From Bacteroidales bacterium (lineage in GTDB: Bacteria > Bacteroidota > Bacteroidia > Bacteroidales > UBA12077), in the NCBI GenBank assembly GCA_028282585.1, contig JANQHR010000125.1, positions 1-38,501 of the forward strand: DNA of 38,501 nt, read 5' to 3'. Under the pieces are notes generated by a model. The model was given only the letters and a program-made list of their open reading frames with translations, did no database searches and had not been told where the DNA came from. A program made the translations under genes and the position numbers. Below, piece after piece: positions 10,538 through 38,321 of this stretch. Every line of letters begins with the position of its first letter. Positions within the stretch are counted from its first letter, which is position 1.

Positions 10538-11446
10538 ATGGAAAACAAACATTTAATTTCAATTACGGATTACACAAAAGAAGAAATCTTTAAGATACTG
10601 GATCTGGCGGAAGATTTCGAAAAAAATCCGAATCAAAACCTTTTAAATAATAAGGTAGTAGCAACTCTGTTTTTTGAACCTTCAACACGTACCCGGTTAA
10701 GTTTCGAAAGTGCCATCAGCAGGCTTGGAGGAAAATACATTGGTTTTACCGATGCAAGTTCGTCAAGCGTATCTAAAGGGGAATCTGTAAAAGATACTAT
10801 TATGACTGTTGCAAACTATAGTGATTTAATAGTTATGCGTCATCCGATTGAAGGAAGTGCACGTTGGGCAAGTGAAGTTTCTCGTGTGCCAATTGTAAAT
10901 GCCGGTGATGGAGCAAACCAGCATCCAACTCAAACCATGTTGGATTTATATTCGATTAGAAAAACGCAAGGAACATTAGATAATTTAAACGTCTGTTTTG
11001 TAGGTGACCTAAAATATGGAAGAACTGTTCACTCTTTACTACAGGCAATGGCTATGTTTAATACCACATACAACTTTGTGTCGCCTAAAGAATTAAGAAT
11101 CCCTGATGAATATAAACTTTATTTAGATAAAAAAGGGTTAGAATATCAAGAACACCGCGAGTTAGATGAAGTAATTAAAAGTGCTGATATTATTTATATG
11201 ACACGAATACAACGTGAACGATTTTCGGACCCTATGGAGTATGAAAAAACTAAAAATGCCTATGTGCTTAAAAATAATATGCTCGAAGAAACAAAAGAAA
11301 ATATGAAGGTTCTTCATCCGCTTCCACGAGTAAACGAAATTGACACGGACGTAGACGAAAACACTAAGGCTTACTATTTTACTCAGGCACTTAACGGTGT
11401 TTATACCCGCCAGGCAATAATTACTTATATTCTAGGACTTAAATAA
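10538..11446 (+). CDS. pyrB: Aspartate carbamoyltransferase catalytic subunit
   Basis: [27 protein letters not shown] and HPLPR motifs. Confidence 0.98.
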
Positions 11447-19243: not shown

Positions 19244-21652
19244 ATGTTTCAGAACTATATCACTATAGCTATAAGAAATGCCATTAGAAATAAAACGTTC
19301 ACATTGATTAATATTCTCGGTTTATCAATTGGAATTGCTTGTAGCCTTTATATTACTTATTGGGTAAGAGACGAACTAAGCTACGATAAGTTTCATGATA
19401 ATTCGGATCGTATTTACAGAATTTACTGGCAATCAGAAAATTCTCAAACACGTACTCCACATCCAATGGCGCAAGCTCTGGCTTATGATTTTCCGGAAGT
19501 AGAGAATGCAGTAAGTTTATCTCCTATTTGGGGGCCAGGGTTAACTATCCCTACGATAACTGTAGAGTATGGCGACAAAAAATTTGATGAGAAGGGCTTT
19601 TATTCTGCAGATACAACTTTCTTTAAAGTATTCTCTTTTAAACTTTTAAAAGGAAATCCTGAAACTGCTCTTAAAGAGCCAGGGGGGATAATTATATCAG
19701 AGAGAATGTCAAAAAAATATTTTGGAAATGAAGATCCTATGGATAAAATGGTAACATTTATTCATGGTGATAAAATAAACTTAAAAGTTACCGGAGTAAT
19801 TGAGAATGTTCCCTCTAATTCCCATTTTAAATTTGATTTTTTAGTATCATATGTTACTCTAAAAATGGGAGAAACAGGAGAATATTATACATGGGAAGAT
19901 TTTGGACATTTTAACTATATTCTTTTAAAGGATAAAGCTGCTGTTAGAAAAGTTGAAGAATCTCTTTTTGAATGGTCCAAAAAATTTATTCAATGGCCAG
20001 ACCAAATGCTAGGTGAACTGGAGATTGGTACAATTGGATTTAAGCTTCAGTCATTAACAGATATCCATTTACATTCACATCTAAAATGGGAACTTGAACA
20101 AAATGGCGATTTTAGTTATATTTGGATACTTTCTTCTTTAGCCATTCTAATAATATTAATAGCTTGTATCAATTTTATGAACTTATCAACGGCTAAATCA
20201 TCAAAAAGAACAAAAGAAATTGGTATAAGAAAGGTATCTGGAGCCAGCAAACTCCAAGTAGTCGTTCAATTTATTGGCGAATCATTCATAACGGTTATTA
20301 TCTCCCTTATAGTTGCAATAATTTTATTCGAAATTTTTAGACCTGCATTTAATGGCCTAACGCTAAAGCAAATAACTATAAATTATACCCAGACACGTTT
20401 TTTTGTTGATCTATTAATATTACTAATAGTAATAACTATTTTAGCCGGTGTTTATCCTGCATTCTTTATGTCAAAGTTCAAACCTAATGATATATTTAAA
20501 GGAAAAGTTATATCAAATATTAAAGGCATAACATTTAGAAGGTTAATGGTAATCTTTCAGTTCAGCATTTCTACCTTACTTATAATATGTACACTTATCA
20601 TCTCAAATCAAATCAAATTTCTAAATCAGAAAAAGCTAGGACTAGATTCAAGTCAAATAATTGTGGTACCAATAAAAGACAGAAGTTTGCTTAATAATCT
20701 TGAAACATTTCAGAAAGAACTTCTTAAGAGCAACTATATCCAAAAAGTTGCCGCAACCTCAAATATTCCTGGGCGGCAATTTAACCAAAACCCTTTGCAT
20801 TGGGCAAAAACTGGTCAAACTATTGACGTTTCTGAGTTACACATTGATTATAATTTCTTGAGTATTCTTGATCTTAAGATGAAAGAAGGGCGCAAATTCT
20901 CACCTGATTTCAGAACCGATTCTTTGGATGCTTTTATATTAAACGAAACCGCTGCAAGCCTTTTTGATTGGAAAAATCCAATTAATGAAATAGTAACTTG
21001 GGAAGATAATGAAATCGATCGTAGAGGAAGAGTTATTGGTATTATTGAAAATTTTCATTTTCAATCTCTTCATAAAAACATTGCTCCTTTGTTAATTAGA
21101 ATAACTCCTCGTGCTTTAAATTATCTGTTACTAAAAATTGATGTCAATAACCTTGATAAAGTAAATAATTACGTTCGCTCAAAAATAGAAGAAATGAACT
21201 ATAACTTTGATTATGATTATTTCTTTCTAGATCAAGATATTTCCACCCTTTACAAAAGTGAAAATCAAATGCAAAAACTATTTTTTTACTTTACCGTATT
21301 TGCAATTTTTATTTCGTGTCTAGGACTTTTTGGTTTGGCATTGTTTATGACAGAACAAAGAACTAAAGAAATAGGTATTCGCAGAGTGCATGGAGCATCA
21401 ATATCCAAGATTATGGTAATTCTTTCTGCTCAATTCCTAAAATGGGTGCTAGTTGCAATTGTTATTGCAGTACCTTTGGCTTATTATGCAATGAACAATT
21501 GGCTACAAGGTTTTGCTTACAGAACAGACATCAAATTTTGGGCTTTTATCGTGGCTACGTTTATATCTTTCACAATTGCCCTAATAACAATTAGTTTTCA
21601 AACCTATAAAACGGCAATTAAAAATCCGGCAGAAAGTTTAAGATATGAATAA
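19244..21652 (+). CDS. MacB/FtsX-type ABC transporter permease
   Basis: NILGLSIGIAC, IACINFMNLSTA..KRTKEIGIRKV duplicated FtsX motifs; ends KNPAESLRYE. Confidence 0.93.
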   Translation: MFQNYITIAIRNAIRNKTFTLINILGLSIGIACSLYITYWVRDELSYDKFHDNSDRIYRIYWQSENSQTRTPHPMAQALAYDFPEVENAVSLSPIWGPGLTIPTITVEYGDKKFDEKGFYSADTTFFKVFSFKLLKGNPETALKEPGGIIISERMSKKYFGNEDPMDKMVTFIHGDKINLKVTGVIENVPSNSHFKFDFLVSYVTLKMGETGEYYTWEDFGHFNYILLKDKAAVRKVEESLFEWSKKFIQWPDQMLGELEIGTIGFKLQSLTDIHLHSHLKWELEQNGDFSYIWILSSLAILIILIACINFMNLSTAKSSKRTKEIGIRKVSGASKLQVVVQFIGESFITVIISLIVAIILFEIFRPAFNGLTLKQITINYTQTRFFVDLLILLIVITILAGVYPAFFMSKFKPNDIFKGKVISNIKGITFRRLMVIFQFSISTLLIICTLIISNQIKFLNQKKLGLDSSQIIVVPIKDRSLLNNLETFQKELLKSNYIQKVAATSNIPGRQFNQNPLHWAKTGQTIDVSELHIDYNFLSILDLKMKEGRKFSPDFRTDSLDAFILNETAASLFDWKNPINEIVTWEDNEIDRRGRVIGIIENFHFQSLHKNIAPLLIRITPRALNYLLLKIDVNNLDKVNNYVRSKIEEMNYNFDYDYFFLDQDISTLYKSENQMQKLFFYFTVFAIFISCLGLFGLALFMTEQRTKEIGIRRVHGASISKIMVILSAQFLKWVLVAIVIAVPLAYYAMNNWLQGFAYRTDIKFWAFIVATFISFTIALITISFQTYKTAIKNPAESLRYE

Positions 21653-21677: not shown

Positions 21678-23012
21678 TCATAGTGTTATTTTAAATGTTG
21701 TTCCCTTATTTTTTTCAGAACCTACTGATACCGAACCTTTATGTAAGCTAATTATTTGCCTAACAAGACTTAATCCTATGCCGGAACCACTTTCTTTACT
21801 TGTATAAAATGGAACAAAAATATCATCTAATTTTTCAATTTCGATTCCAATACCATTATCTATAATGAAAACTTGCAATTGATTTTCAACTAGTTCGGCT
21901 TTTATGTTAATTTGAGGATTTTTAGTTTCGCCTAAAGCTTCTATTGCATTTTTTATCAAATTTATAAAAGCTTGTTCTAAAAGCTTTGAGTCGCCTTCAA
22001 TAACAATTTTTTCATTAATAATTATATTTAGTTCAATATTTAAATTATTGATCTCTTTTTTAAAAATATTGGCAGAGTTTTCAATTAACTGCTTTACATC
22101 AACCTTCCCAAAAGATACTTTGCCTAGTTTAGTAAGCTTCCTGTAATTCTCTACAAATTGCATCAAGTTATTGCTTCGGCTTTCAATAATATTAGTATCC
22201 TCGATAGCTTCCATTATTACTTCCTTTTGCACATTTTTTGTCTCAACATTTTCATTTAACGATCTTCGAATAGAATAAGTTAAGTTTGTAATGGGAGCTA
22301 TAGAATTCATTATTTCGTGCGTTAAAACCCTTATTAGCTTTTGCCATGATTCCATCTCCTTTTGATCAAGTTCAGCACTTATATTTTGAATAGATATAAG
22401 GTTTATAAACTCATTATTAAACTTGAATTGTTTCTTCTGTACTAGAAATTGTTGAATACTGCCATTAATTTTTAATTTTTGCTGAAATAAATCCTCAGGT
22501 TTACTTTTCAATAATTTTTCATAAAAACTACTATCAATATCTTTGATTTCCGAAAGTTCCTTGGTCCATTTTAAATTTATAAGGTCCGAAAAAGTTCTAT
22601 TTGTAAACTGTACTTTACCATCATTATTATAAGCCATTAATCCTATATTAATTTGCTCAATAACAAATTGAAGGAAATGATATTGCTTTTCTTTTTCTAT
22701 TCTTGTATTTTCGAGTAAATCAGCTGTATTATTCAAAATTTTTGCTAATTCTGTAAAGTTTCCATTCAAATCGGATGAAAACCTGTATGCCCCTTCGTCG
22801 GTTTTCAGCAGTTTTAGAAACCTTATAATTTCCTTATTGATTTTATTAAAATACTTAACAAAAAAAACGGATTGGATTATAATTAGGGTTAGAATAAAAA
22901 ATTTAGTATAAACTTTTTGAGGGCTATCGATTTCTAAAGTAAACCAAACTGAAGTCGAAATAATCAATATTAATCTTGTTATAATGCTTAAATTGAAATT
23001 CCTATAAACCAT
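21678..23012 (-). CDS. NtrY-like sensor histidine kinase with PAS-like region
   Basis: SWQKLIRVLTHEIMNS H-box; NLIKNAIEA, DNGIG, FVPFYTSK, GSGIGL. Confidence 0.92.
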   Translation of the reverse strand: MVYRNFNLSIITRLILIISTSVWFTLEIDSPQKVYTKFFILTLIIIQSVFFVKYFNKINKEIIRFLKLLKTDEGAYRFSSDLNGNFTELAKILNNTADLLENTRIEKEKQYHFLQFVIEQINIGLMAYNNDGKVQFTNRTFSDLINLKWTKELSEIKDIDSSFYEKLLKSKPEDLFQQKLKINGSIQQFLVQKKQFKFNNEFINLISIQNISAELDQKEMESWQKLIRVLTHEIMNSIAPITNLTYSIRRSLNENVETKNVQKEVIMEAIEDTNIIESRSNNLMQFVENYRKLTKLGKVSFGKVDVKQLIENSANIFKKEINNLNIELNIIINEKIVIEGDSKLLEQAFINLIKNAIEALGETKNPQINIKAELVENQLQVFIIDNGIGIEIEKLDDIFVPFYTSKESGSGIGLSLVRQIISLHKGSVSVGSEKNKGTTFKITL

Positions 23013-24369
23013 GTTTTGTCAGTTTTGAATATAATGATGTCCTGGATATCCCAAGCAATTTTGAAGCTTTTGAAATATTTCCTTTACAATCTTTTAATGC
23101 TTTTTCTATTGCACTCTTCTCAAGTGTATCAAGATGTAAGATTGATATTACATTTTTAGTTTCATAATATTGGCCACTAAATAAATCTTCAGGTTTAATA
23201 ACTAAATCCTCATTTAATATTACAGCTTTTTCTATTGTATGGCTCAACTCGCGAATATTTCCGGGCCAATTATAATTTATTAATGCTTCCAATGCCTTCG
23301 CATTTAGTTTCAAACCAGGTTTGTTATATTTGGTTGAAAATTTGTTAAGAAAATGTTCTGTTAATAAATTAACATCTTCTCCTCTATCCCTTAACGGGGG
23401 TGATAAAATCTCAATGGTATTGATTCTAAAATATAGGTCCTCCCTAAATAATTGCTCCTGAACCATCTGTTTTAAATCTTTATTTGTTGCACAAACAACC
23501 CTGGCATCGAAAGTTTTAGGCTTTGAATCCCCAACTGGCGTGAATTCACGGGTTTGCAGAGCTGTTAAGAGTTTAGCCTGAAGATTAATAGATAAGTTGG
23601 CAATTTCATCAAGAAACAACGTACCTCCGGAAGCAGCTTCAAATTTTCCAATTTTATCTTCTTTTGCATCAGTGAAAGCACCTTTGACATGTCCAAATAA
23701 TTCACTTTCAAAAATGCCTTCATTTAACGTACTTAGGTCAACATGTAAGAACACTTCATTATTACGTTTTGATTTCCTATGTAATTCATTGGCTATTAAT
23801 TCCTTTCCAGTTCCATTTTCACCAAGAATTAGAACATTAGCATCTGTTGATGCTACTTTTTCAACCGTTTTTAAAAGATTTCTTATAACTGTTGACCGCC
23901 CAATAATAGGACTTATTTTGCTAATAACATCCTCTTTATAATATTTACTTTTTCTTTTTAACTGGTTAATTTCTCTATTTGACTTACTAATTTCTATAGC
24001 ATTCTGAATTGTAACAATTAACTTCTGAGGTTCCCATGGTTTTGTTATAAAATTGGTTGCACCCTTTTGTATCGCTTTAACAGCAATATCTATATCTCCA
24101 TAAGCTGTAATTAAAATTACTACCAATTCCGCATCAATTTCTTTAATTCTTTTTAACCATTTAAAACCATCTCTGCCTGAGTTATCGCCCTCTGTAAAGT
24201 TCATATCCAGTAAAGTCACGTCATAATCTTTACTTTTAAGTTGTAGGAGTATTTTATTGGGGTTACTTAAAGTATCAATTTCTTCAAAATCAAATTTCAA
24301 TAATCTTTTGAGCGATTTTAGCAAGTCCAGGTTATCATCAACTACAAGAATTTTACCTTCTTTTTGCAT
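23002..24369 (-). CDS. Sigma54-dependent (NtrC-family) response regulator
   Basis: Receiver (VVDD, LLDMNF); AAA+ GENGTGKE, ESELFGH, GAFTDA, FLDEI; Fis HTH. Start moved to ATG 24369 because a TAtcTTTG promoter (24397-24404, minus strand) overlaps the longer TTG start. Confidence 0.93.
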   Translation of the reverse strand: MQKEGKILVVDDNLDLLKSLKRLLKFDFEEIDTLSNPNKILLQLKSKDYDVTLLDMNFTEGDNSGRDGFKWLKRIKEIDAELVVILITAYGDIDIAVKAIQKGATNFITKPWEPQKLIVTIQNAIEISKSNREINQLKRKSKYYKEDVISKISPIIGRSTVIRNLLKTVEKVASTDANVLILGENGTGKELIANELHRKSKRNNEVFLHVDLSTLNEGIFESELFGHVKGAFTDAKEDKIGKFEAASGGTLFLDEIANLSINLQAKLLTALQTREFTPVGDSKPKTFDARVVCATNKDLKQMVQEQLFREDLYFRINTIEILSPPLRDRGEDVNLLTEHFLNKFSTKYNKPGLKLNAKALEALINYNWPGNIRELSHTIEKAVILNEDLVIKPEDLFSGQYYETKNVISILHLDTLEKSAIEKALKDCKGNISKASKLLGISRTSLYSKLTKHGL

Positions 24370-24412
24370 ATTTCCTATAAAATTGAATATATTAACCAAA
24401 GATAAGTAAAAG

Positions 24413-24557: not shown

Positions 24558-26909
24558 ATGTTAGTAAATTATATCAAAACAGCTTATCGCAACATGATGC
24601 GAAATTTTAGCCAAAGTTTAATAAATGTATTAGGCTTAGCCATAGGAATGACATGTGCCCTATTGATCTTTTTATGGGTTCAAAATCAACTTAATTATGA
24701 CCAATGGCAAGAAAAGAAAGAAAACATTTATCGTTTGGAATACAATACCTGGGTTATTATGCCACCTTATATAGGTGATGTTGTAAATAAACTTCCAGAA
24801 GTCGAAGATATGGTTAGGCTATATTTTTGGGAACAACCGACATTAACTTACAAAGAAACGGCTTATAATATAGATCATTTTGCATGGGCAGATAGTTCTA
24901 TTTTTAACGTTTTCACTTTTAACTTCCTGCATGGGAAACCTATAGATGCATTAGCCAATCCACACTCTATAGTTTTAACCAAATCGTATTCTGAAAGATT
25001 TTTTGGTAATGAAAACCCAATAGGTAAAACGCTTTTAATGGATAATGAGTTAGAATATACAGTAACAGGAGTAATAGAAGACGTTAAAAATCTACATTTA
25101 GAAATAAATGGAATTGCTGCTGCACAAGATCTTGCCATACATTATGGTGATAACCGAGTTTTAGAAGCCCGAAATCACAATTGGTTGATTTATTTATTAG
25201 TAAACAGAAATGCTGATATAAACAAACTTGAAGAAAAAATTAACAGAACGGTATCAGATTTTAATAATGAAGACGAAGATGAAGATGGAAGCGTATTTTT
25301 ATTACTAAGACCTTTCGAAGAAATATATTTTGAGCGAGGTTTGCCACATGAAACTTTTGTTAAACATGGTAACTTTAACCTGGTTTTAATATTTAGTGCA
25401 ATTTCAATTCTTATATTAGTTATTGCATGTATCAATTTTATAAACATAACTACAGCAAAGGCCAATTTGCGAGAAAAAGAAATTGGAGTCCGTAAAATTA
25501 TTGGTGCCAATAAAGGCAAAATTGCCAAACAATTCTTAGGCGAAACTTTTTTTATGGTTATTGTAGCGCATGTAATTAGCATTGTATTACTCGAACTTAT
25601 ACTACCAAAATTTAATTTAATAACCAATGAGTTTATTTCATTTAATTACCTTTCATCTCAGTTCTTATTTATGATTTTTACAATAATTTTAATAACAACT
25701 ATACTATCCGGATTATATCCATCATTTTATTTATCTTCATTAAAACCTGTATTGATGTTGAAAGGAAAGTCAGGACAAAAATCTAAAGGTAATTTAAGAA
25801 AGATTCTGATGATAACTCAATTTGTGATTTCTATATTTTTAATTATATCGACAATATTAATTCTAAAACAGCTGAATTTTGTTCTTAAAAAAGATCTGGG
25901 ATGGAACCAGGAAAACATCATAACGTTTGAGTTAAAAGGTGATAAATTCTCTGGAGATAAAGAAAATTATATAAATAACAAAAATGCTTTTAATAATGAA
26001 CTATTTAAAAACCCGGAAATCAAAAGCTTAACGTATTTAAATCAATATCCTGGCAAGGTAACAAATACCTCTTCGTTAGAATTTGAAGGAGAAGAATATT
26101 CTCTTCGCTTTATTAATGCAGATCCCGATTTTGTAAAAACTTTAAATGTTGAAATAACTAAAGGAAGAAATTTTTCTTATGACCATCCTGGTGATTTAGA
26201 TAACGCAATAATACTAAATGAAGCTGCGGTAGATTTTCTAGGTTTAGAAGATCCAATAACAACTATAACATCATATGGCAGAGAAATACCAATTATTGGC
26301 GTTGTAAAAGATTTTAATTTCAACTCTTTACATTCTGAAATAATTCCAATGGCAATTACCTGGGATTATTGGACACGAAGAGTTTGTGTAAAGGTATCTG
26401 GGAATAACATTCCAAATACTATAAAATATATAAAATCTTTATACAATGAATTCTGTCCAAAATATCCTTTTGATTATGGCTTTATGGACGAACAATTTGC
26501 TAGACAATACGATAGTGAAATTAAGCAGTCCAAAATACTGGTATTTTTTGCAGGCATTGCAATTTTTATAGCAGGTCTCGGATTATTTGGAATGGCTTCA
26601 TTTATTAGTGCTACAAGAATAAAAGAAATAGGAATCAGAAAAGCTTTAGGCTCATCAACCCGTGAAATTATGGTTTTATTTTCATCAAGTTTTATGCAAT
26701 GGATAATTATTGCATTTATAATTGCTGCACCAATCGCTTACTATTTAGTTAATAAGTGGTTAATGCAATATCCATACAAAACCAGCATTAGTTGGTGGGT
26801 ATTTTTAGTTGCATTGTTAATTTCAATCGTGATAGCATTAATTACAATCGGTTTTCAGATTATTAAATCGGCCAGAACAAACCCTGCAGAATGTCTACGT
26901 TATGAGTAG
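24558..26909 (+). CDS. MacB/FtsX-type ABC transporter permease (paralog of 19244-21652)
   Basis: NVLGLAIGM, IACINFINITTA..REKEIGVRK, second RIKEIGIRK motif; ends NPAECLRYE. Confidence 0.93.
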   Translation: MLVNYIKTAYRNMMRNFSQSLINVLGLAIGMTCALLIFLWVQNQLNYDQWQEKKENIYRLEYNTWVIMPPYIGDVVNKLPEVEDMVRLYFWEQPTLTYKETAYNIDHFAWADSSIFNVFTFNFLHGKPIDALANPHSIVLTKSYSERFFGNENPIGKTLLMDNELEYTVTGVIEDVKNLHLEINGIAAAQDLAIHYGDNRVLEARNHNWLIYLLVNRNADINKLEEKINRTVSDFNNEDEDEDGSVFLLLRPFEEIYFERGLPHETFVKHGNFNLVLIFSAISILILVIACINFINITTAKANLREKEIGVRKIIGANKGKIAKQFLGETFFMVIVAHVISIVLLELILPKFNLITNEFISFNYLSSQFLFMIFTIILITTILSGLYPSFYLSSLKPVLMLKGKSGQKSKGNLRKILMITQFVISIFLIISTILILKQLNFVLKKDLGWNQENIITFELKGDKFSGDKENYINNKNAFNNELFKNPEIKSLTYLNQYPGKVTNTSSLEFEGEEYSLRFINADPDFVKTLNVEITKGRNFSYDHPGDLDNAIILNEAAVDFLGLEDPITTITSYGREIPIIGVVKDFNFNSLHSEIIPMAITWDYWTRRVCVKVSGNNIPNTIKYIKSLYNEFCPKYPFDYGFMDEQFARQYDSEIKQSKILVFFAGIAIFIAGLGLFGMASFISATRIKEIGIRKALGSSTREIMVLFSSSFMQWIIIAFIIAAPIAYYLVNKWLMQYPYKTSISWWVFLVALLISIVIALITIGFQIIKSARTNPAECLRYE

Positions 26910-27176
26910 TAAAACCTTTTTACTTTTGATTTCGCTGAAAGCAGTTTAAAATCAAAGTACGAAAATTAAGTATTATTTGATCATAAATATTATCACATTT
27001 TTGATCTTAAAGATATCTGTAAGTTAATATTTTACATACATTTTGTGAAATAATCACATTTTATTGTTATTTCAAGGGTCACCTTTTACACAATTTAGGA
27101 ATATATATATAGAAGCCGGCTCCAAAACCGGCAGGAGGAACTATGTTTTATTGTTAAATTTTAAATGTTTGTAACT

Positions 27177-27551
27177 ATGGAAAAACTTACGATTGATCAA
27201 GAGACTAATGCTGTAAAAGCCATTTTTGACAACTTTATTAAAGATGAAGATTTTAAACAATTCGCTCAACAAATACTAGACAGAGTAAAAGTGAGTGGCA
27301 AAAAAAAGTTATTATATGATACGCGAGGTTTGAAAGTAATGTCTAAAGAGGTTCAGGATTGGATTAACGAAGTATGGTTTTCTGAGGCTAATAAAATAGG
27401 AATTACACATATGGCCTTTATTATCCCGGAAAATATTTTTGGAAAAATTTCAATGGAACAAACCAATAGCAAGGGAGAAAAAGTGGGCAACATAAATATT
27501 GAATATTTTATGGGAATGACTGCTGCTAAAGAATGGCTAAATAAAAACTAG
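27177..27551 (+). CDS. Small STAS/SEC14 (SpoIIAA-like) domain protein
   Basis: Pattern KLLYDTR...QDWINEVWF...GITHMAFIIP..IFGK...F....AAKEWL; ATG 27177 preferred over 27165. Confidence 0.7.
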   Translation: MEKLTIDQETNAVKAIFDNFIKDEDFKQFAQQILDRVKVSGKKKLLYDTRGLKVMSKEVQDWINEVWFSEANKIGITHMAFIIPENIFGKISMEQTNSKGEKVGNINIEYFMGMTAAKEWLNKN

Positions 27552-27576
27552 GAGTATAAATAAAGCTGGCTCAAAT

Positions 27577-27586
27577 TAAGTTTAGC
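27577..27586 (+). promoter_or_regulatory. Possible -7 promoter variant TAagTTTAGC, inside a weak hairpin (27563-27588) after the STAS gene
   Basis: One mismatch to TAnnTTTG; would start transcription at about 27590, where the structured element begins. Confidence 0.35.
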
Positions 27587-27590
27587 TTAA

Positions 27591-27729
27591 GCGTGTCTTA
27601 TGCTGACAGGTGGAGAGCGCATGCTCCATATACGACCAATACAATTTTGCTTTTGCGCTCCCACTCTACAAAACATTGTTTTATAGACCTGACAGGCTAT
27701 ATAGTCTATATATATGTTTATGAGACAGC
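27591..27729 (+). ncRNA. Candidate structured cis-regulatory leader RNA (SAM-I-like architecture); alternatively a small MITE
   Basis: Closing helix UGUCUUAUG/UAUGAGACA; internal helices GGUGG(A)GAGCGCA/UGCGCUCCCACU, GAGC/GCUC, ACAAU/AUUGU and UAUAGAC/GUCUAUA; locally GC-richer than its flanks. Confidence 0.4.
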
Positions 27730-27738
27730 GAATTAAAG

Positions 27739-27756
27739 TTACAAATTAATTTGTAA
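27739..27756. promoter_or_regulatory. Perfect 18-bp palindrome TTACAAATTAATTTGTAA (putative operator)
   Basis: Self-reverse-complementary; 26 nt upstream of the radical SAM ATG. Confidence 0.5.
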
Positions 27757-27782
27757 AACACAAAAACACATAAATCATAAAC

Positions 27783-28931
27783 ATGGAAATATTAGAGAAA
27801 AAAGACAAAAAAGATATAGATCAGATTATAAATCATTTCGCAGAAAATGAAGAAGATATAGAAATCATCAAGCAAGTTAAAAAAGTTTATCCAGTAAAAT
27901 ACACATCATTTTTAGCAGAATTATTTTTAAAATCTGAAGCTATCAGAAAACAATTTTTACCCTCTCCACTTGAGCTTAAAACCAATGGTACACCTACCCC
28001 GTTTGAAGAAGGCAAGAAAGCATCAAAAACTTATGGGTTAGAAAGATTATATCGCGATAGAGTATTAATTACACCACATTTTGACTGTCCTGCATATTGC
28101 CGTTTTTGCTATAAAAAAAGCAGAGTAATGCGTAATAAACCTTCAATGACCTTTGAAGAAATTAATGCTGTAGTAAGCGAAGTTAGCAAAATGAAAGAAG
28201 TTAGAGGAGCACTAATAACCGGAGGTGAGCCATTTCTCGACCAAGATAAGTTATTTTATCTACTTGATAAATTAATTGAGTTAAACAATATTAAAGAGAT
28301 AAGAATTGGTACCAGGACACTTCTTACGATGCCGGAAATATATACAGAAGATTTATGTTTTAAGCTTTCTACGTATAATCAAATTAATTCTTCTGATCCT
28401 GAAAAAAGTAAATATTTAGCCATTAATGTTCATTTTAATCATCCCGATGAACTGGTACCGGAAGTAATACAAGCTTGTAACAAACTTACCTCAAGAGGAA
28501 TCATATTACGCAATCAGACTGTACTTTTAAAAGGAATAAACGATAATATAGCAACCATGTCGCGGCTGTTTCAATTATTAATCAGAAATAATATTATTCC
28601 TTACTATATGAATCATTGTATGCCAGTTGAAGGAAGTGACCATCTTAGAACATCAGTACAAAAAGGGTTAGATATTTATAAGTTTTTATGTACCGAATCC
28701 TCAACTGCGATCCCTCATTATGTTTATGCACCTAGTGGAGGAAAGGTTCATGTTGGACCTGATACGAAATTTGAATACGTTCATGACAAGCATATTCGAT
28801 ACATAAAAGTAAAAACATTATATAAAGCTGAGGAATTCAAGAAAATTGCTAAAAAAGAACTTCCTCCGATGCATGAAGTAACAGAAGACGGCTATATTCA
28901 AGGATTATACATCGATGGAAAAGACGAATAA
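27783..28931 (+). CDS. KamA-family PLP-dependent radical SAM enzyme (divergent 2,3-aminomutase-like; substrate probably not lysine)
   Basis: C102xxxC106xxC109; IRKQFLP, Y.DRVL, ITGGEP, IRIGTR, HFNHPDE, NQTVLLKGINDN, PYY; GGK321 PLP lysine. Confidence 0.9.
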   Translation: MEILEKKDKKDIDQIINHFAENEEDIEIIKQVKKVYPVKYTSFLAELFLKSEAIRKQFLPSPLELKTNGTPTPFEEGKKASKTYGLERLYRDRVLITPHFDCPAYCRFCYKKSRVMRNKPSMTFEEINAVVSEVSKMKEVRGALITGGEPFLDQDKLFYLLDKLIELNNIKEIRIGTRTLLTMPEIYTEDLCFKLSTYNQINSSDPEKSKYLAINVHFNHPDELVPEVIQACNKLTSRGIILRNQTVLLKGINDNIATMSRLFQLLIRNNIIPYYMNHCMPVEGSDHLRTSVQKGLDIYKFLCTESSTAIPHYVYAPSGGKVHVGPDTKFEYVHDKHIRYIKVKTLYKAEEFKKIAKKELPPMHEVTEDGYIQGLYIDGKDE

Positions 28932-28968
28932 ACTAATAAATTGAACTAAACCACACCATATATTTTGC

Positions 28969-29006
28969 AAGTACAGGACAAGTATTGTTCTGTACTTACT
29001 TTTTTT
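28969..29006 (+). terminator. Intercistronic hairpin/terminator between the radical SAM and LLM genes
   Basis: AAGTACAGGACAA-GTA-TTGTTCTGTACTT 13-bp stem, then AC and T7. Confidence 0.65.
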
Positions 29007-29025
29007 AAGATGACATTCATTACCT

Positions 29026-30039
29026 ATGCATTCTAACAGAAAATTTTACGTTGCACTACAAGGAAATTATTCTCCTCGTTCTTACATCAAACTAGCAAAA
29101 TACATTGAGCAACTAGGTTTTGACCGAATATACATTTATGATGACCTGTTTTATTATCCCTCTATTCCAATATTAACTCTAATTGCCGAACATACAAACA
29201 AAATTGAATTAGGCCCCTGTTTACTTAATGGATTTTACAGGCACCCTGCCATTATTACAAGCAGTATTTTAGCTTTAAATGAACTTGCTTCTGATAGGGT
29301 AATATTAGGTTTGGGTAGAGGCGCATTTTACGATTTTCTAGGCTTGGATAGTTCTGAAGAGTCAACACGTATGGCTTTTAAAGAAAATATCCTTCTTATA
29401 AAACATTTTTTACAGAATAAAAGAAATTCTTTTAATGGAAAATATTTTAAAGCTAATGAAAACGCCTTCTTAAGAATTAAATCGGCAAACATTCCTTTAA
29501 TAGCCGGCACATGGAATGAGGATATGGCATATATAACCGGACAATTTTGTAATGAAATTCAAATCGCAGATGTATGGGATACTGAATACTTAAATCGTTT
29601 ACAAAACAGTTTTTTAATTGGAAATTGTGAAACGAATTTAATTGATGAGCCAAAATTCTCAATTGGTGGTATATGTTGTGTTTCCGAAAATGAAGAAAAA
29701 TGCTTAAAAAAAGTGACCGAAACTACAATCGTTTATCTGCCCTACCTGACACGAATTTTAGACAGATGCGGAGTAAATTATAGCAAGAAAGATATTCAAA
29801 CAATATCAAATTTATCCAAAGCCGGTAAAATCCAGGAAGCTTCTAAATATGTTACTGAAGAAATGATAAACACTTTAACCATTTGGGGGACACCGAAAAA
29901 TGTTGTTAAAAAAATAAATAATACCCTAAATAAAGTTGAAGCAGACTCTATTATGTTTTCTGTTCCATTTGGTATTGAAGATTCGGTTGAAAAAAACCTT
30001 CGGTTAATCAAAGAAAAAGTAATCCCTTATATTAAGTAA
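29026..30039 (+). CDS. LLM-class (luciferase-like/Mer-like) flavin- or F420-dependent oxidoreductase
   Basis: LAKYIEQLGFDRIYIYDD...IAEHTNKIELGP..N.FYRHPAII......L.EL...RVILGLGRG; C-terminal GTP..V motif. Confidence 0.85.
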   Translation: MHSNRKFYVALQGNYSPRSYIKLAKYIEQLGFDRIYIYDDLFYYPSIPILTLIAEHTNKIELGPCLLNGFYRHPAIITSSILALNELASDRVILGLGRGAFYDFLGLDSSEESTRMAFKENILLIKHFLQNKRNSFNGKYFKANENAFLRIKSANIPLIAGTWNEDMAYITGQFCNEIQIADVWDTEYLNRLQNSFLIGNCETNLIDEPKFSIGGICCVSENEEKCLKKVTETTIVYLPYLTRILDRCGVNYSKKDIQTISNLSKAGKIQEASKYVTEEMINTLTIWGTPKNVVKKINNTLNKVEADSIMFSVPFGIEDSVEKNLRLIKEKVIPYIK

Positions 30040-30057
30040 TAAGGGAGCTTAGTAATT

Positions 30058-35396: not shown

Positions 35397-38321
35397 TTAC
35401 TTTAATGCATCATATAAAACCTCCACCGGGTGCAATGCTGTTTTTCCTGTCCCATCTTTAATCTGGTGGCGGCAACTGGTTCCCGGGGCAGCAATTAATA
35501 CATTATTTTTTGCTTCGCGCACTGCCGGAAATAATACCATCTCCCCAATTTTCATGGAAACATCATAGTGTTCCTTTTCATACCCAAATGAGCCTGCCAT
35601 TCCGCAACAACCGGATGAAATTTCTTCAACACTGTAATTTTCGGGAAATGACAATAGAAATTTGGTCGGATCTGTGGATGCTACTGCTTTTTGCTGGCAA
35701 TGACCATGCAGCTTAATTTTTCTCTCTTCGGTTTTGAAAGCTTCCCGGTCAATGTTTCCGGCTTCCATTTCCCGTTTAAGGAACTCATCAATCATTAAAG
35801 CATTTTTACCTAATTTAACCGTTGTTTCTTTTAATCCGCTTCCAACCAAATCAGGGTATTCATCGCGAAAAGTTAAGATAGCCGAAGGTTCTATTCCCAC
35901 CAAAGGTGATTTCTCTGAAATAATACCTTTCAAGAAATTCACATTTTTAATCGCAATCCTTTTGGCTTTTCTCACCAAGCCCTTTGAAAGATATGTTCTT
36001 CCGCTATCAATATGTTTTGGAATAACAACTTCATAGCCTAAACGAGTTAGTAACCGAACAGTTTTAATTCCAATATCTGTATCGTTATAATTGGTAAATT
36101 CGTCGTTAAATAAATAAACCTTTCCTATACTTTGTTGATTTTCCTTTAATTCAGCTAAATAACTTTTCATCCATTTAGTTAATGTTCGCTTACCCAGTAA
36201 AGGCATACTTCTTTGTGGAGCAAAACCAATTAATTTCATCATAAATGATGAAACAGATTTGTTTTTCATCAAAACATTATAAAACATTGGCCAAACAGAA
36301 GCTAATTTATTTATTTCTGTTATATAAGCAATTAATCTTGATCGTAATGGAATTCCATTTGAATCATAATAATGTTGCAAGAATTCTGCTTTTAATTTGG
36401 CAACATCAACGCTTGATGGACATTCAGATTTACAAGCTTTGCACGATAAACATAGATCCATTACTTCTTTAATTTCAGGATAGTCGAACGGATTTTTCTT
36501 TGATGAAATAGTTAAGAATTCTCTTAAAATATTTGCCCTTGCACGTGTTACATCATTTTCATTACGTGTAGCCATATAGCTTGGACACATAGTTCCTCCT
36601 ATCATCTCTGTTTTACGACAATCTCCACTCCCATTACATTTTTCTGTAGCCCTAACGATCCCTCCATCTTTAGAAAAATCGAATACAGTTTCAATTTCCG
36701 GTTCACTCCGATCTGTTTCATATCTTAAATTGGAAGTCATGGACGGAACGTTAACAATTTTACCAGGGTTAAAAATATTATTGGGATCCCAAACAGATTT
36801 AAGCTCTTGTAACAACTTGTAATTCCTTTCGCCAACCACAATTGGAATGAACTCTCCTCTTACCCGCCCGTCACCATGTTCACCGCTCATCGATCCCTTA
36901 TACTTCTTTACCAAATGAGCAATTTCAACACCAATGGTTCGGAACATTTCAACATCCTTTGAATCCTTTAAGTTCAGTATTGGGCGCAAATGCAATTCTC
37001 CGGAACCTATATGGGCATGATAAACACATTCCAATTGATGTTTCTCAAGAATTTTTTGGAAATCATCCATATAATCCGGTAAAACTTCAACGTTTACAGC
37101 TGTGTCTTCGATTATCGAAACTGGTTTTGCATCTCCTTCCATGTTGGATAAGACACCTAACCCTGATTTTCTCAGGGCCCATACCTTTTTTGTATCTTCA
37201 TTATAAATTATAGGAAAGTGATAACCAAACCCTGAACTTTTTAAATCCTTAATTAAGACGTTACATATTTGGTTTATTTCTTCAATTGTATTTCTGGCAA
37301 ATTCAATAATTAATACTGCTTCCGGATCTCCTTCCACAAAAAAGCGATTCTTTAATTGATCTCGGTTTCCTTTAGTTAAATTAAGAATGGTGTTATCCAT
37401 CATCTCAACGGCTCCAGGCATATGCTTTAATGCTATTAAGTTAGCTTTAAATGCCTCTTCTTTCGTTTTAAAGTGTGCCGCTACGACTGCCACTTCATTT
37501 GGTGGGATATCAACTAAATTCAGCTTTATTTCGGTAATTATCCCTAATGTTCCTTCCGATCCACAAATTAAATTGGAAAAGTTAAATTGCTTTTCAGAAT
37601 CTGTAAATGGTTCTGATTCCAATAACAAATCGATAGCATATCCGGTATTTCTTCTGTAAATAAATGGATCTGGATATTCTTTACGAATTTCTTGTTGATT
37701 TTCCGGATCGGATAATAATCCATTTACGTGCTTATAAATAGTATTTTCCAGTAGGTTCCCTTCAAGTTTACTTTCAAATTCATTTTTACTAATTGCAGCA
37801 AATTCAACTTCCCTTCCATCACTAAGAATAACTTTGGTTGCTAAAGTATGGTCTCTAGTTGTGCCATATATAATTGAGTGCGAACCACATGCATTATTTC
37901 CCACCATTCCTCCAATCATACACCGATTGGCAGTTGATGTTTCCGGGCCAAAAAATAAACCATGCGGTTTTAGAAATATGTTCAGTTCATCAAGAATTAC
38001 TCCTGGTTGAACTTTTATCCATCGCTCCTTTTTATTTAATTCCAATATTTCGGTAAAATACTTCGAAACATCCACAACAATTCCATCTCCAACAACCTGT
38101 CCTGCCAAAGAAGTTCCAGCCGTTCTTGGTATTAATGATGTTTTATGTTCGTTTGCAAAAGCAATTAATTTTTTTAAATCACTTTTGTCTTTCGGACGAG
38201 CAACTGCTATAGGTAATTCTCTATAGGCAGATGCATCGGTCGCATATAATATCTTTGTTTTTTGGTCAGTATATAAGTCACCCTTTAAATTTTTGGCTAA
38301 CTCCTTTAGTTTATTTAGCAT
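35397..38321 (-). CDS. FAD-binding and Fe-S-binding oxidoreductase (GlcD/YdiJ-like 2-hydroxyacid dehydrogenase)
   Basis: YATDASAY, RTAGTSLAGQ, GSEGTLG, GEHGDGR; Cys clusters CNGSGDC, CLSCKACKSECP, HGHC, CCGMAG. Confidence 0.92.
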   Translation of the reverse strand: MLNKLKELAKNLKGDLYTDQKTKILYATDASAYRELPIAVARPKDKSDLKKLIAFANEHKTSLIPRTAGTSLAGQVVGDGIVVDVSKYFTEILELNKKERWIKVQPGVILDELNIFLKPHGLFFGPETSTANRCMIGGMVGNNACGSHSIIYGTTRDHTLATKVILSDGREVEFAAISKNEFESKLEGNLLENTIYKHVNGLLSDPENQQEIRKEYPDPFIYRRNTGYAIDLLLESEPFTDSEKQFNFSNLICGSEGTLGIITEIKLNLVDIPPNEVAVVAAHFKTKEEAFKANLIALKHMPGAVEMMDNTILNLTKGNRDQLKNRFFVEGDPEAVLIIEFARNTIEEINQICNVLIKDLKSSGFGYHFPIIYNEDTKKVWALRKSGLGVLSNMEGDAKPVSIIEDTAVNVEVLPDYMDDFQKILEKHQLECVYHAHIGSGELHLRPILNLKDSKDVEMFRTIGVEIAHLVKKYKGSMSGEHGDGRVRGEFIPIVVGERNYKLLQELKSVWDPNNIFNPGKIVNVPSMTSNLRYETDRSEPEIETVFDFSKDGGIVRATEKCNGSGDCRKTEMIGGTMCPSYMATRNENDVTRARANILREFLTISSKKNPFDYPEIKEVMDLCLSCKACKSECPSSVDVAKLKAEFLQHYYDSNGIPLRSRLIAYITEINKLASVWPMFYNVLMKNKSVSSFMMKLIGFAPQRSMPLLGKRTLTKWMKSYLAELKENQQSIGKVYLFNDEFTNYNDTDIGIKTVRLLTRLGYEVVIPKHIDSGRTYLSKGLVRKAKRIAIKNVNFLKGIISEKSPLVGIEPSAILTFRDEYPDLVGSGLKETTVKLGKNALMIDEFLKREMEAGNIDREAFKTEERKIKLHGHCQQKAVASTDPTKFLLSFPENYSVEEISSGCCGMAGSFGYEKEHYDVSMKIGEMVLFPAVREAKNNVLIAAPGTSCRHQIKDGTGKTALHPVEVLYDALK

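Follow-up and report, generated by a model that had tools for sequence, protein, structure and literature searches.

The locus

We analysed a stretch of 38,501 nucleotides from a contig of a Bacteroidales bacterium (JANQHR010000125.1, assembly GCA_028282585.1), hereafter the window, in which a gene for a KamA-like radical S-adenosylmethionine (SAM) protein (KamAL) is followed by a gene for a luciferase-like oxidoreductase (LLM). A preliminary description of this DNA had proposed that the two genes form a self-contained unit with its own promoter, a structured 5' element, an operator-like palindrome and an intercistronic hairpin, and that their products carry out a two-step pathway, radical amino migration and a redox reaction, on an unusual amino acid. 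Both open reading frames (ORFs) were confirmed with the domains ascribed to them (Table 1), and a third gene, for a small protein with a STAS fold, lies upstream of the pair. KamAL, LLM and the STAS-fold protein are each encoded by a single copy in the window genome (98.35% complete), in which KamAL is the sole KamA-family gene and the LLM gene the sole LLM match.

The genes that usually surround KamA, EpmB and AblA had been said to be missing here, and this was borne out: none of kamDE, kdd, kce, epmA, GNAT/ablB or non-ribosomal peptide synthetase (NRPS) genes was detected by Pfam in the 29 non-overlapping window ORFs of at least 110 aa.

Table 1. Positions of the cassette genes, of the elements between them and of other features named in the text; positions are those of the window unless a locus number precedes them
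Feature	Position	Strand	Size	Basis or remark
STAS-fold small protein gene	27165-27551	+	128 aa	Pfam, model, conserved neighbourhood
Structured intergenic element, three-stem fold	27598-27700	+		alifold, covariance model R1
Perfect 18-nt palindrome	27739-27756	none		repeat search; 27 nt before the KamAL start codon
KamAL gene	27783-28931	+	382 aa	Pfam Radical_SAM (47.7 bits) and Fer4_12
Intercistronic hairpin and T-run	28969-29007	+		terminator- or attenuator-like
LLM gene	29026-30039	+	337 aa	Pfam Bac_luciferase (112.6 bits)
8-bp hairpin	30023-30046			between the convergent LLM and threonine-aldolase-like genes; scored terminator-like on the - strand
Two paralogous MacB/FtsX-type permease genes	19244-21652 and 24558-26909			just upstream of the cassette
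Histidine kinase and sigma-54-dependent response regulator genes	21678-24399	-		between the permease genes
FAD-linked oxidase fusion gene	35397-38321	-	974 aa	FAD_binding_4 and FAD-oxidase_C with a 4Fe-4S dicluster domain
Tandem STAS-like genes	L007:3490-5728			four copies
XylR_N/V4R/Roadblock protein and following protein	L005:9135-10172 and 10538-10984			
LLM-CrtI fusion gene	L090:3971-6574			
Sister-clade short KamA-like genes	L094:4958-6040; L095:4544-5644 (-); L096:5027-6121 (-)			

KamAL, LLM and a STAS-like gene recur together

A scan with one genome per prokaryotic species returned 78 loci, which split into 33 loci (L001-L033) with a KamAL relative at 51-90% identity and 45 others at 34-38%. 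LLM was present in 30 of the 33. In 29 of these it directly follows KamAL in the same orientation (with a partial gene in L032), and in L025 it precedes KamAL on the opposite strand. No LLM was found in L027 or L029, where the contigs end at or just past KamAL, nor within the 6 kb flank of L030. None of the 45 distant KamA-like loci had it. When the 495 ORFs of the 33 loci, all of at least 80 aa, were clustered, three gene families turned out to be common to these loci, namely KamAL (33), LLM (30) and the STAS-like gene (25), while the next-ranked family, present in 6 loci, was an antisense ORF over the STAS-like gene. The pair is fixed, and the proposal was not refuted by the co-occurrence test that the preliminary description had set for it; the two-gene unit has to be extended by a third member.

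The same partnership was seen within the order, for which 301 Bacteroidales genomes were evenly drawn. KamAL orthologs (at least 63% identity, the next best match being at 41%) were detected in 7 of these genomes, and LLM (E<=1e-10) in exactly the same 7, adjoining KamAL in 6 and lying 2.7 kb away in G067. Among 401 Bacteroidota genomes, only the window genome and G029 carried a KamAL ortholog. Over 28 loci, the pairwise identities of KamAL and LLM were correlated (r = 0.89; 378 non-independent pairs), KamAL being the more conserved of the two (mean identity 67% vs 49%). Altogether, KamAL, LLM and the STAS-fold protein form a conserved three-gene cassette that has apparently not been described: in agreement with the preliminary description, a literature search, with most subscription journals outside its reach, found no paper pairing a KamA-family enzyme with an LLM.

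This cassette, a feature of uncultured anaerobic bacteria, is patchily spread. The 7 carriers in the order sample belong to five families; the congener G230 has no cassette, yet keeps the adjacent pair of peptidase and aldolase genes; and the genes flanking the cassette vary among the 33 loci. In a tree, the Firmicutes, alphaproteobacterial and archaeal members stood outside a 28-row group, otherwise made of Bacteroidota, inside which the KSB1/Calditrichota sequences were placed at an unresolved fork. Distribution, congener, flanks and tree are evidence for a rare accessory unit that has spread horizontally. The content of guanine and cytosine (GC) does not contribute to this, since it is 0.31-0.33 in the cassette with no departure from the rest of the window, and the horizontal acquisition proposed earlier is thus backed by distribution and not by composition.

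KamAL keeps the aminomutase cofactor motifs and has a different substrate pocket

Of all NCBIfam models, the one for glutamate 2,3-aminomutase (TIGR04368) gave KamAL its highest score (204.9 bits, cut-off 650), followed by AblA (TIGR03820; 183.4 bits, cut-off 525.4), arginine 2,3-aminomutase (TIGR04468; 182 bits, cut-off 600), the KamA subfamily (TIGR00238; 169.9 bits, cut-off 199.2) and EpmB (TIGR03821; 122.4 bits, cut-off 369.3), so that KamAL remains below every curated aminomutase cut-off. Its best PDB match is the lysine 2,3-aminomutase (LAM) of Clostridium subterminale (2A5H, E = 9e-43), and the CxxxCxxC (CPAYCRFC), GG(E/D) and HFNH motifs as well as the pyridoxal phosphate (PLP) lysine all line up in this alignment. 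Residues C102, C106, C109, G147-G148, N219-H220 and K321 are invariant across 27 family sequences, and K321 stands opposite residue 337 of the 2A5H chain, the PLP-binding lysine of LAM. With the superfamily, the core and these motifs in common with LAM and AblA, KamAL would be expected to catalyse a radical 1,2-amino shift. It differs from both in being ~35-40 residues shorter and in its C-terminal end: Pfam matched Radical_SAM and Fer4_12 only and not LAM_C, there is no cysteine past residue 303, and a distinct conserved tail, LPxxH...YxDGxD, stands in place of the zinc-binding cysteines of LAM_C. CYKKSRV, NHCMP and YVYAPSGGK make up a signature of the family.

The pocket differs as well. LAM reportedly binds the carboxylate of lysine by Arg134 and its epsilon-amine by Asp293 and Asp330 (Lepore et al. 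2005; Ruzicka and Frey 2007). At these positions, the 2A5H alignment gives Lys, Met and a deletion in KamAL. The Met, which is that of the NHCMP motif, was found in 33 of 33 loci, the Asp330 position was deleted in all 32 readable loci, and Lys took the place of Arg134 in 30 of 31 readable loci, the exception being L030 with Arg. Arg, Asp and Asp were all kept in the 45 distant loci, which form the next clade. The contrast between that clade and the KamAL clade lends support to these roles of the LAM residues. Since the lysine-binding residues are replaced by invariant, family-specific ones, the substrate of KamAL would not be lysine; judged by its sequence, KamAL is a non-lysine enzyme that does not make beta-lysine, and the idea of an unusual substrate was not refuted at this point. 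We find it very improbable that KamAL is nonetheless an ordinary lysine 2,3-aminomutase (KamA/AblA) with LLM as an incidental neighbour, which the public source annotation of its relatives ('lysine 2,3-aminomutase') and the match to 2A5H would favour, but which is opposed by the exchanged pocket, by scores far under the AblA and KamA cut-offs and by the strict co-occurrence with LLM.

The characterised specificities of the KamA family are, to our knowledge, few, comprising lysine, glutamate and arginine aminomutases plus EpmB. The glutamate and arginine enzymes are likewise non-lysine members with exchanged pocket residues, but KamAL scores less than one third of their cut-offs and its pocket, with a Met and a deletion, is hydrophobic, unlike the polar pair of glutamate 2,3-aminomutase.

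Short KamA-like proteins at 28-36% identity (L094-L096) form a sister clade with the Asp330 deletion and the same tail. The clusters that contain their genes are of the polysaccharide type and also encode glycosyltransferases, polysaccharide deacetylases, GNAT proteins, a PaaK-like ligase and hexapeptide acyltransferases, a setting that suggests beta-amino-acyl decoration of glycans.

LLM resembles Mer but lacks its key residues, in hosts without detected CofD and CofE

LLM matches the luciferase-like family PF00296 far above its gathering threshold of 27.9 bits. Its nearest curated model is that of the coenzyme F420-dependent methylene-tetrahydromethanopterin reductase, Mer (F420_mer, TIGR03555; 120.6 bits, cut-off 348.7), and Mer is also its nearest PDB sequence match (8qq8, 3e-27). 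The predicted structure of LLM (predicted local distance difference test score, pLDDT, of 93.5) is a TIM barrel of the LLM fold that superposes best on Mer (template-modelling score, TM, of 0.82-0.86) and next on FGD2, Adf, FGD1 and PepI, all of them F420 enzymes, with flavin mononucleotide (FMN) monooxygenases lower. These F420 enzymes, the nearest to LLM in both sequence and fold, move a hydride to a C=N+ or C=O centre.

Mutants reported in PMC11094777 support roles for the catalytic Glu6 and for Asp96 of jMer. In a profile alignment, the Glu of the FGIE motif of M. kandleri Mer (1ezw) lies opposite a nearly invariant Ala10 of the LLM family, and the Asp-Lys pair that follows GPG in Mer is deleted, so Asp96 is not kept. 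Another Mer position, 'position C' (Gln178), aligns to different LLM residues in two alignments, chain residue 178 being Asn by our count in the HMMER alignment. With neither the catalytic Glu nor Asp96 kept, LLM is, as read from these alignments, not a Mer.

CofD (TIGR01819) and CofE (TIGR01916) were not found in any of six cassette genomes searched, which are 90-100% complete and include the window genome, and two CofH-like genes corresponded to MqnC and MqnE (442 vs a cut-off of 428 and 466 vs a cut-off of 435). F420, which the preliminary description had offered as a possible cofactor, is thus unlikely because CofD and CofE were not found in these hosts; LLM probably does not depend on it, and FMN would be our guess instead. 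It is extremely improbable that LLM is a true F420-dependent methylene-tetrahydromethanopterin (or folate) reductase and that the pair belongs to one-carbon metabolism: Mer is certainly the top NCBIfam, PDB and fold match, but the score falls far short of the cut-off, the two Mer residues are not kept and CofD and CofE were not detected.

LLM also differs from Mer and its relatives by a big score gap to all other LLM proteins. Three fragments aside, word-based matches drop from 40% identity (289 bits) to 26% (62 bits), and a profile search of 1.84 billion representative proteins returned four full-length LLM sequences above 480 bits, the next full-length ones scoring at most 221 bits. A metagenome scan with LLM as a single-protein query gave 2 loci; an alignment query would reach further.

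The third gene encodes a STAS-fold protein

The Pfam score of the third protein against the SpoIIAA-like family PF11964 (23 bits) is just below the threshold of 25 bits, and Foldseek, given its AlphaFold model (pLDDT 84.4), returned TM1081, RsbS and SpoIIAA as best matches (probability 1.00, TM 0.6-0.66). There are 31 copies of the gene in the 25 loci that have it beside KamAL, with four tandem copies in L007 and L021; G096 and G224 have four in tandem as well. The STAS copies are conserved over their full length, unlike peptide precursors. In anti-sigma-factor antagonists of the SpoIIAA/RsbV type, a conserved Ser or Thr at the start of helix 3 is phosphorylated by a partner kinase; in the alignment, read by eye, the residue preceding the conserved (E/D)VQ helix is S, T, K, A, P or R. 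No SpoIIAB-like kinase was found among the neighbours common to the 33 loci. Complex prediction of KamAL or LLM with the STAS-fold partner gave a score of 0.00 twice, a result obtained with no controls and with no bearing either way.

The STAS-like relatives belong to a wider Bacteroidales paralog family, present in 49 of the 301 genomes with at most 13 copies per genome; these paralogs have ~125-145 aa, with examples in G060, G037, G085 and G008. The best matches (E<=1e-19) adjoin the cassette in 7 of 7 cassette genomes of the order sample, and the cassette-free genomes G100, G085 and G205 hold matches at this level too. In the KSB1/Calditrichota-type loci without the STAS-like gene (L005, L006 and L009) and in the metagenome loci L090 and L091, a protein with XylR_N, V4R and Roadblock/LC7 domains is encoded downstream instead. 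A conserved protein of 148-151 aa without Pfam match is encoded after it.

Variant loci hint at the chemistry

Several loci replace LLM or add genes to the cassette. In L030 (Geoglobus), a class-III aminotransferase gene directly follows KamAL, in the place of LLM. Class-III aminotransferases include omega- and beta-amino-acid transaminases, and this arrangement suggests that the second step acts on the new amino group. KamAL of L029 (Lachnospiraceae) is fused to a GNAT domain, and its gene lies beside those for an adenylation-carrier protein (A-T NRPS), a type II thioesterase (TEII) and a 3-deoxy-D-arabino-heptulosonate 7-phosphate (DAHP) synthase that scores over its family cut-off. L024-L026, which form one clade and count as one event, have a second bona fide TrpB (522-527 bits, cut-off 392) directly upstream of KamAL, placed in L025 between the STAS-like gene and KamAL, and each of these hosts has another TrpB elsewhere (588-595 bits). 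In L033 (Alphaproteobacteria), SDR, MDR and AMP-ligase genes come after LLM, and a coenzyme A (CoA)-transferase and a thiolase gene follow the cassette in one locus, L014. Finally, a CrtI-family FAD oxidoreductase forms the C-terminal part of LLM fusions in 3 protein clusters and in L090 and L091, the CrtI part scoring 172 vs 238 on crtI_fam and matching 4dgk at 2e-21. These fusions (L090, L091, P0232-P0235) are 851-867 aa long with a CrtI part of ~480 aa. Upstream of KamAL in L090, and divergent from it, stands a gene for a Methyltransf_2 O-methyltransferase.

Altogether, the variant loci point to a free small-molecule substrate with a carboxylate. The second TrpB, the DAHP synthase, the V4R sensors, the Met-lined pocket and binding proteins of the STAS/SEC14 type argue for a hydrophobic or aromatic side chain on this substrate.

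We judge it improbable that the cassette instead modifies a macromolecule, whether the STAS-fold protein itself or a translation factor as EpmA and EpmB do, with no free metabolite involved. The frequency of the STAS-like gene, its four tandem copies in some genomes and the relatedness of EpmB to KamA would fit such a role. The full-length conservation of the STAS copies does not fit a peptide precursor, the gene is missing in 8 of 33 loci, and KSB1/Calditrichota loci swap in a sensor-type protein. Only three gene families are common to the 33 loci, the variant loci add genes for an NRPS A-T protein, an AMP-ligase, an aminotransferase and TrpB, and no EpmA-type ligase was seen among the ORFs of the window or in the 33 loci, EpmA having been searched neither by its own family model nor in the whole genome.

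A proposed pathway

Considering these observations, we tentatively favour the explanation that the cassette encodes a short small-molecule pathway in which a non-lysine aminomutase is followed by a dedicated redox step, with an accessory protein. In a first step, suggested by its conserved motifs, KamAL would act on a free amino acid with the help of [4Fe-4S], SAM and PLP and, like LAM, move its alpha-amino group to the beta position. The side-chain pocket of KamAL would have been rebuilt, with Met at the position of the first lysine-binding Asp and no counterpart of the second, and would probably accept a hydrophobic, possibly aromatic (tryptophan-like), amino acid. In a second step, LLM would transfer a hydride on the product of KamAL, with the new beta C-N or C=O centre as the likeliest site, so that a beta-amine may be oxidised towards a beta-keto acid or an imine or ketone reduced; this step is deduced from the strict pairing and from the enzymes that stand in for LLM or accompany it elsewhere. 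LLM would use no F420 in these hosts, but presumably FMN or another hydride carrier. The STAS-fold protein, or its XylR_N/V4R/Roadblock substitute, would probably bind the hydrophobic substrate or product, or regulate the pathway. The two-step pathway on an unusual amino acid that had been put forward earlier fits the variant contexts (aminotransferase, GNAT fusion with NRPS, TrpB, and AMP-ligase with SDR and MDR), and the preliminary description was largely right in what it observed and supported in part in its interpretation.

Several points weigh against this explanation. Which step comes first is an assumption, and the reading of KamAL depends on the roles ascribed to Arg134, Asp293, Asp330 and Lys337 of LAM. 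The aromatic hint comes from few independent lineages, with TrpB and V4R proteins in one clade each and the DAHP synthase in one locus, and the CoA-transferase/thiolase and Aas-like neighbours, seen once each, may be there by chance. Moreover, every one of the closest relatives of LLM, by sequence as by fold, is an F420 enzyme, and a cofactor other than F420 is deduced because the biosynthesis genes are missing, not from the LLM protein itself.

There is also a modest chance that KamAL catalyses another PLP-dependent radical reaction without 1,2-amino shift, or that LLM acts first and prepares the substrate. KamAL does fall outside all curated aminomutase models and has lost the LAM C-terminal part in favour of its own tail, and the fusions of LLM with a CrtI-like desaturase/isomerase suggest more than one redox step; but it keeps every aminomutase cofactor motif, and the class-III aminotransferase that takes the place of LLM in L030 fits a beta-amine product, given the properties of that family.

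A more specific form of the favoured pathway, which we regard as rather unlikely, is that KamAL is the first radical SAM/PLP 2,3-aminomutase with an aromatic substrate, namely tryptophan or one of its close analogues, working with an F420-type LLM barrel re-tooled to F420-free use. If true, bacteria of anaerobic sediments and host-associated ones would have a way to a beta-aryl amino acid, or to its beta-keto product, that needs no oxygen.

Non-coding elements and neighbouring genes

The intercistronic hairpin of the preliminary description is real: its 13-bp stem (28969-28997), followed by a T-run, is kept in the six closest loci out of six with both arms changed, as read by eye from the alignment.

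The structured 5' element was upheld in part. The 228-nt spacer folds with -47.9 kcal/mol, compared with -38.1 +/- 4.6 for shuffled sequences (z = -2.14; 5 of 200 shuffles as stable), which is a modest stability, and its core (Table 1) is conserved in the window and in L001-L003 with 28 alifold pairs, 5 of them compensatory in these 4 sequences. This core is missing in L004 and L023; a search with the covariance model R1 was negative for all of the other 32 sources and gave no copy past the four training sequences. In 150 Bacteroidales genomes, R1 matched 2, the window genome, where the element is single-copy, and the congener G106, which holds L003. Rfam 15 gave nothing at its gathering threshold in the whole window and nothing at E<=1 in 27400-29100. 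The element is thus a lineage-specific candidate leader, restricted to the closest relatives, and not part of the cassette system. Within it, CTGACAGG occurs twice, at 27602-27610 and 27688-27696, 86 nt apart; the two copies, conserved in four genomes, make up the outer stem of the predicted fold and could alternatively be protein-binding sites.

The operator-like palindrome is present as a perfect 18-mer, but it is kept in the window and L001 only. A promoter belonging to the unit found no support, matches being no more frequent than by chance: sigma-70-like sites numbered 14 vs 16.3 +/- 3.5 expected, no exact TAnnTTTG of the Bacteroidetes consensus occurs in the spacer (27552-27782), and the full Bacteroidetes-type promoter pattern occurs once in the window, outside the spacer, vs 4.0 expected.

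The other features of the window listed in Table 1 include two permease genes, and L001 has two tandem permease copies at the matching position. A defence system was considered and rejected, PADLOC having returned a generic 'oxidoreductase' model for LLM (67 bits) and a marginal viperin model for the radical SAM core. Only generic clusters (KamA/radical SAM; STAS/SEC14) were found in the ESM Atlas. Among sequencing runs, one matched, a DNA run that may be the source sample, and no RNA run was listed.

Relation to known systems and significance

The cassette resembles the AblA-AblB and KamA-KamDE-Kdd-Kce systems in combining an aminomutase with a dedicated follow-up enzyme on the beta-amino product, which is a GNAT acetyltransferase in AblB and, in lysine fermentation, a dehydrogenase leading to a beta-keto acid that is then cleaved. 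The GNAT-KamAL fusion of L029 and the CoA-transferase and thiolase of L014 echo these pathways. The follow-up enzyme of the cassette differs from both in its LLM fold, with no kam, kdd, kce or ablB partner in the window, and we know of no LLM-fold enzyme in either pathway. If the substrate was aromatic, the net reaction, from an alpha- to a beta-aryl amino acid, would be that of the phenylalanine and tyrosine aminomutases (PAM/TAM) that depend on 4-methylideneimidazol-5-one (MIO). PAM and TAM have an unrelated fold and mechanism with the MIO electrophile, and are neither radical SAM nor PLP enzymes. We know of no radical SAM enzyme for aromatic amino-acid 2,3-aminomutation, and none turned up in the literature search.

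The KamAL clade, whose pocket signature is hydrophobic and invariant and which has a redox partner of its own, is a clonable candidate for a new specificity in the KamA family. Its LLM partner, a barrel with F420-enzyme relatives in hosts where CofD and CofE were not found, raises a question of cofactor switching for flavin and deazaflavin enzymology and for biocatalysis. The strict pairing, the small size of the family and the GNAT-KamAL and LLM-CrtI fusions offer clear experimental entry points into the cassette, which is a candidate for a new oxygen-free chemistry by which beta-amino acids are formed or broken down.

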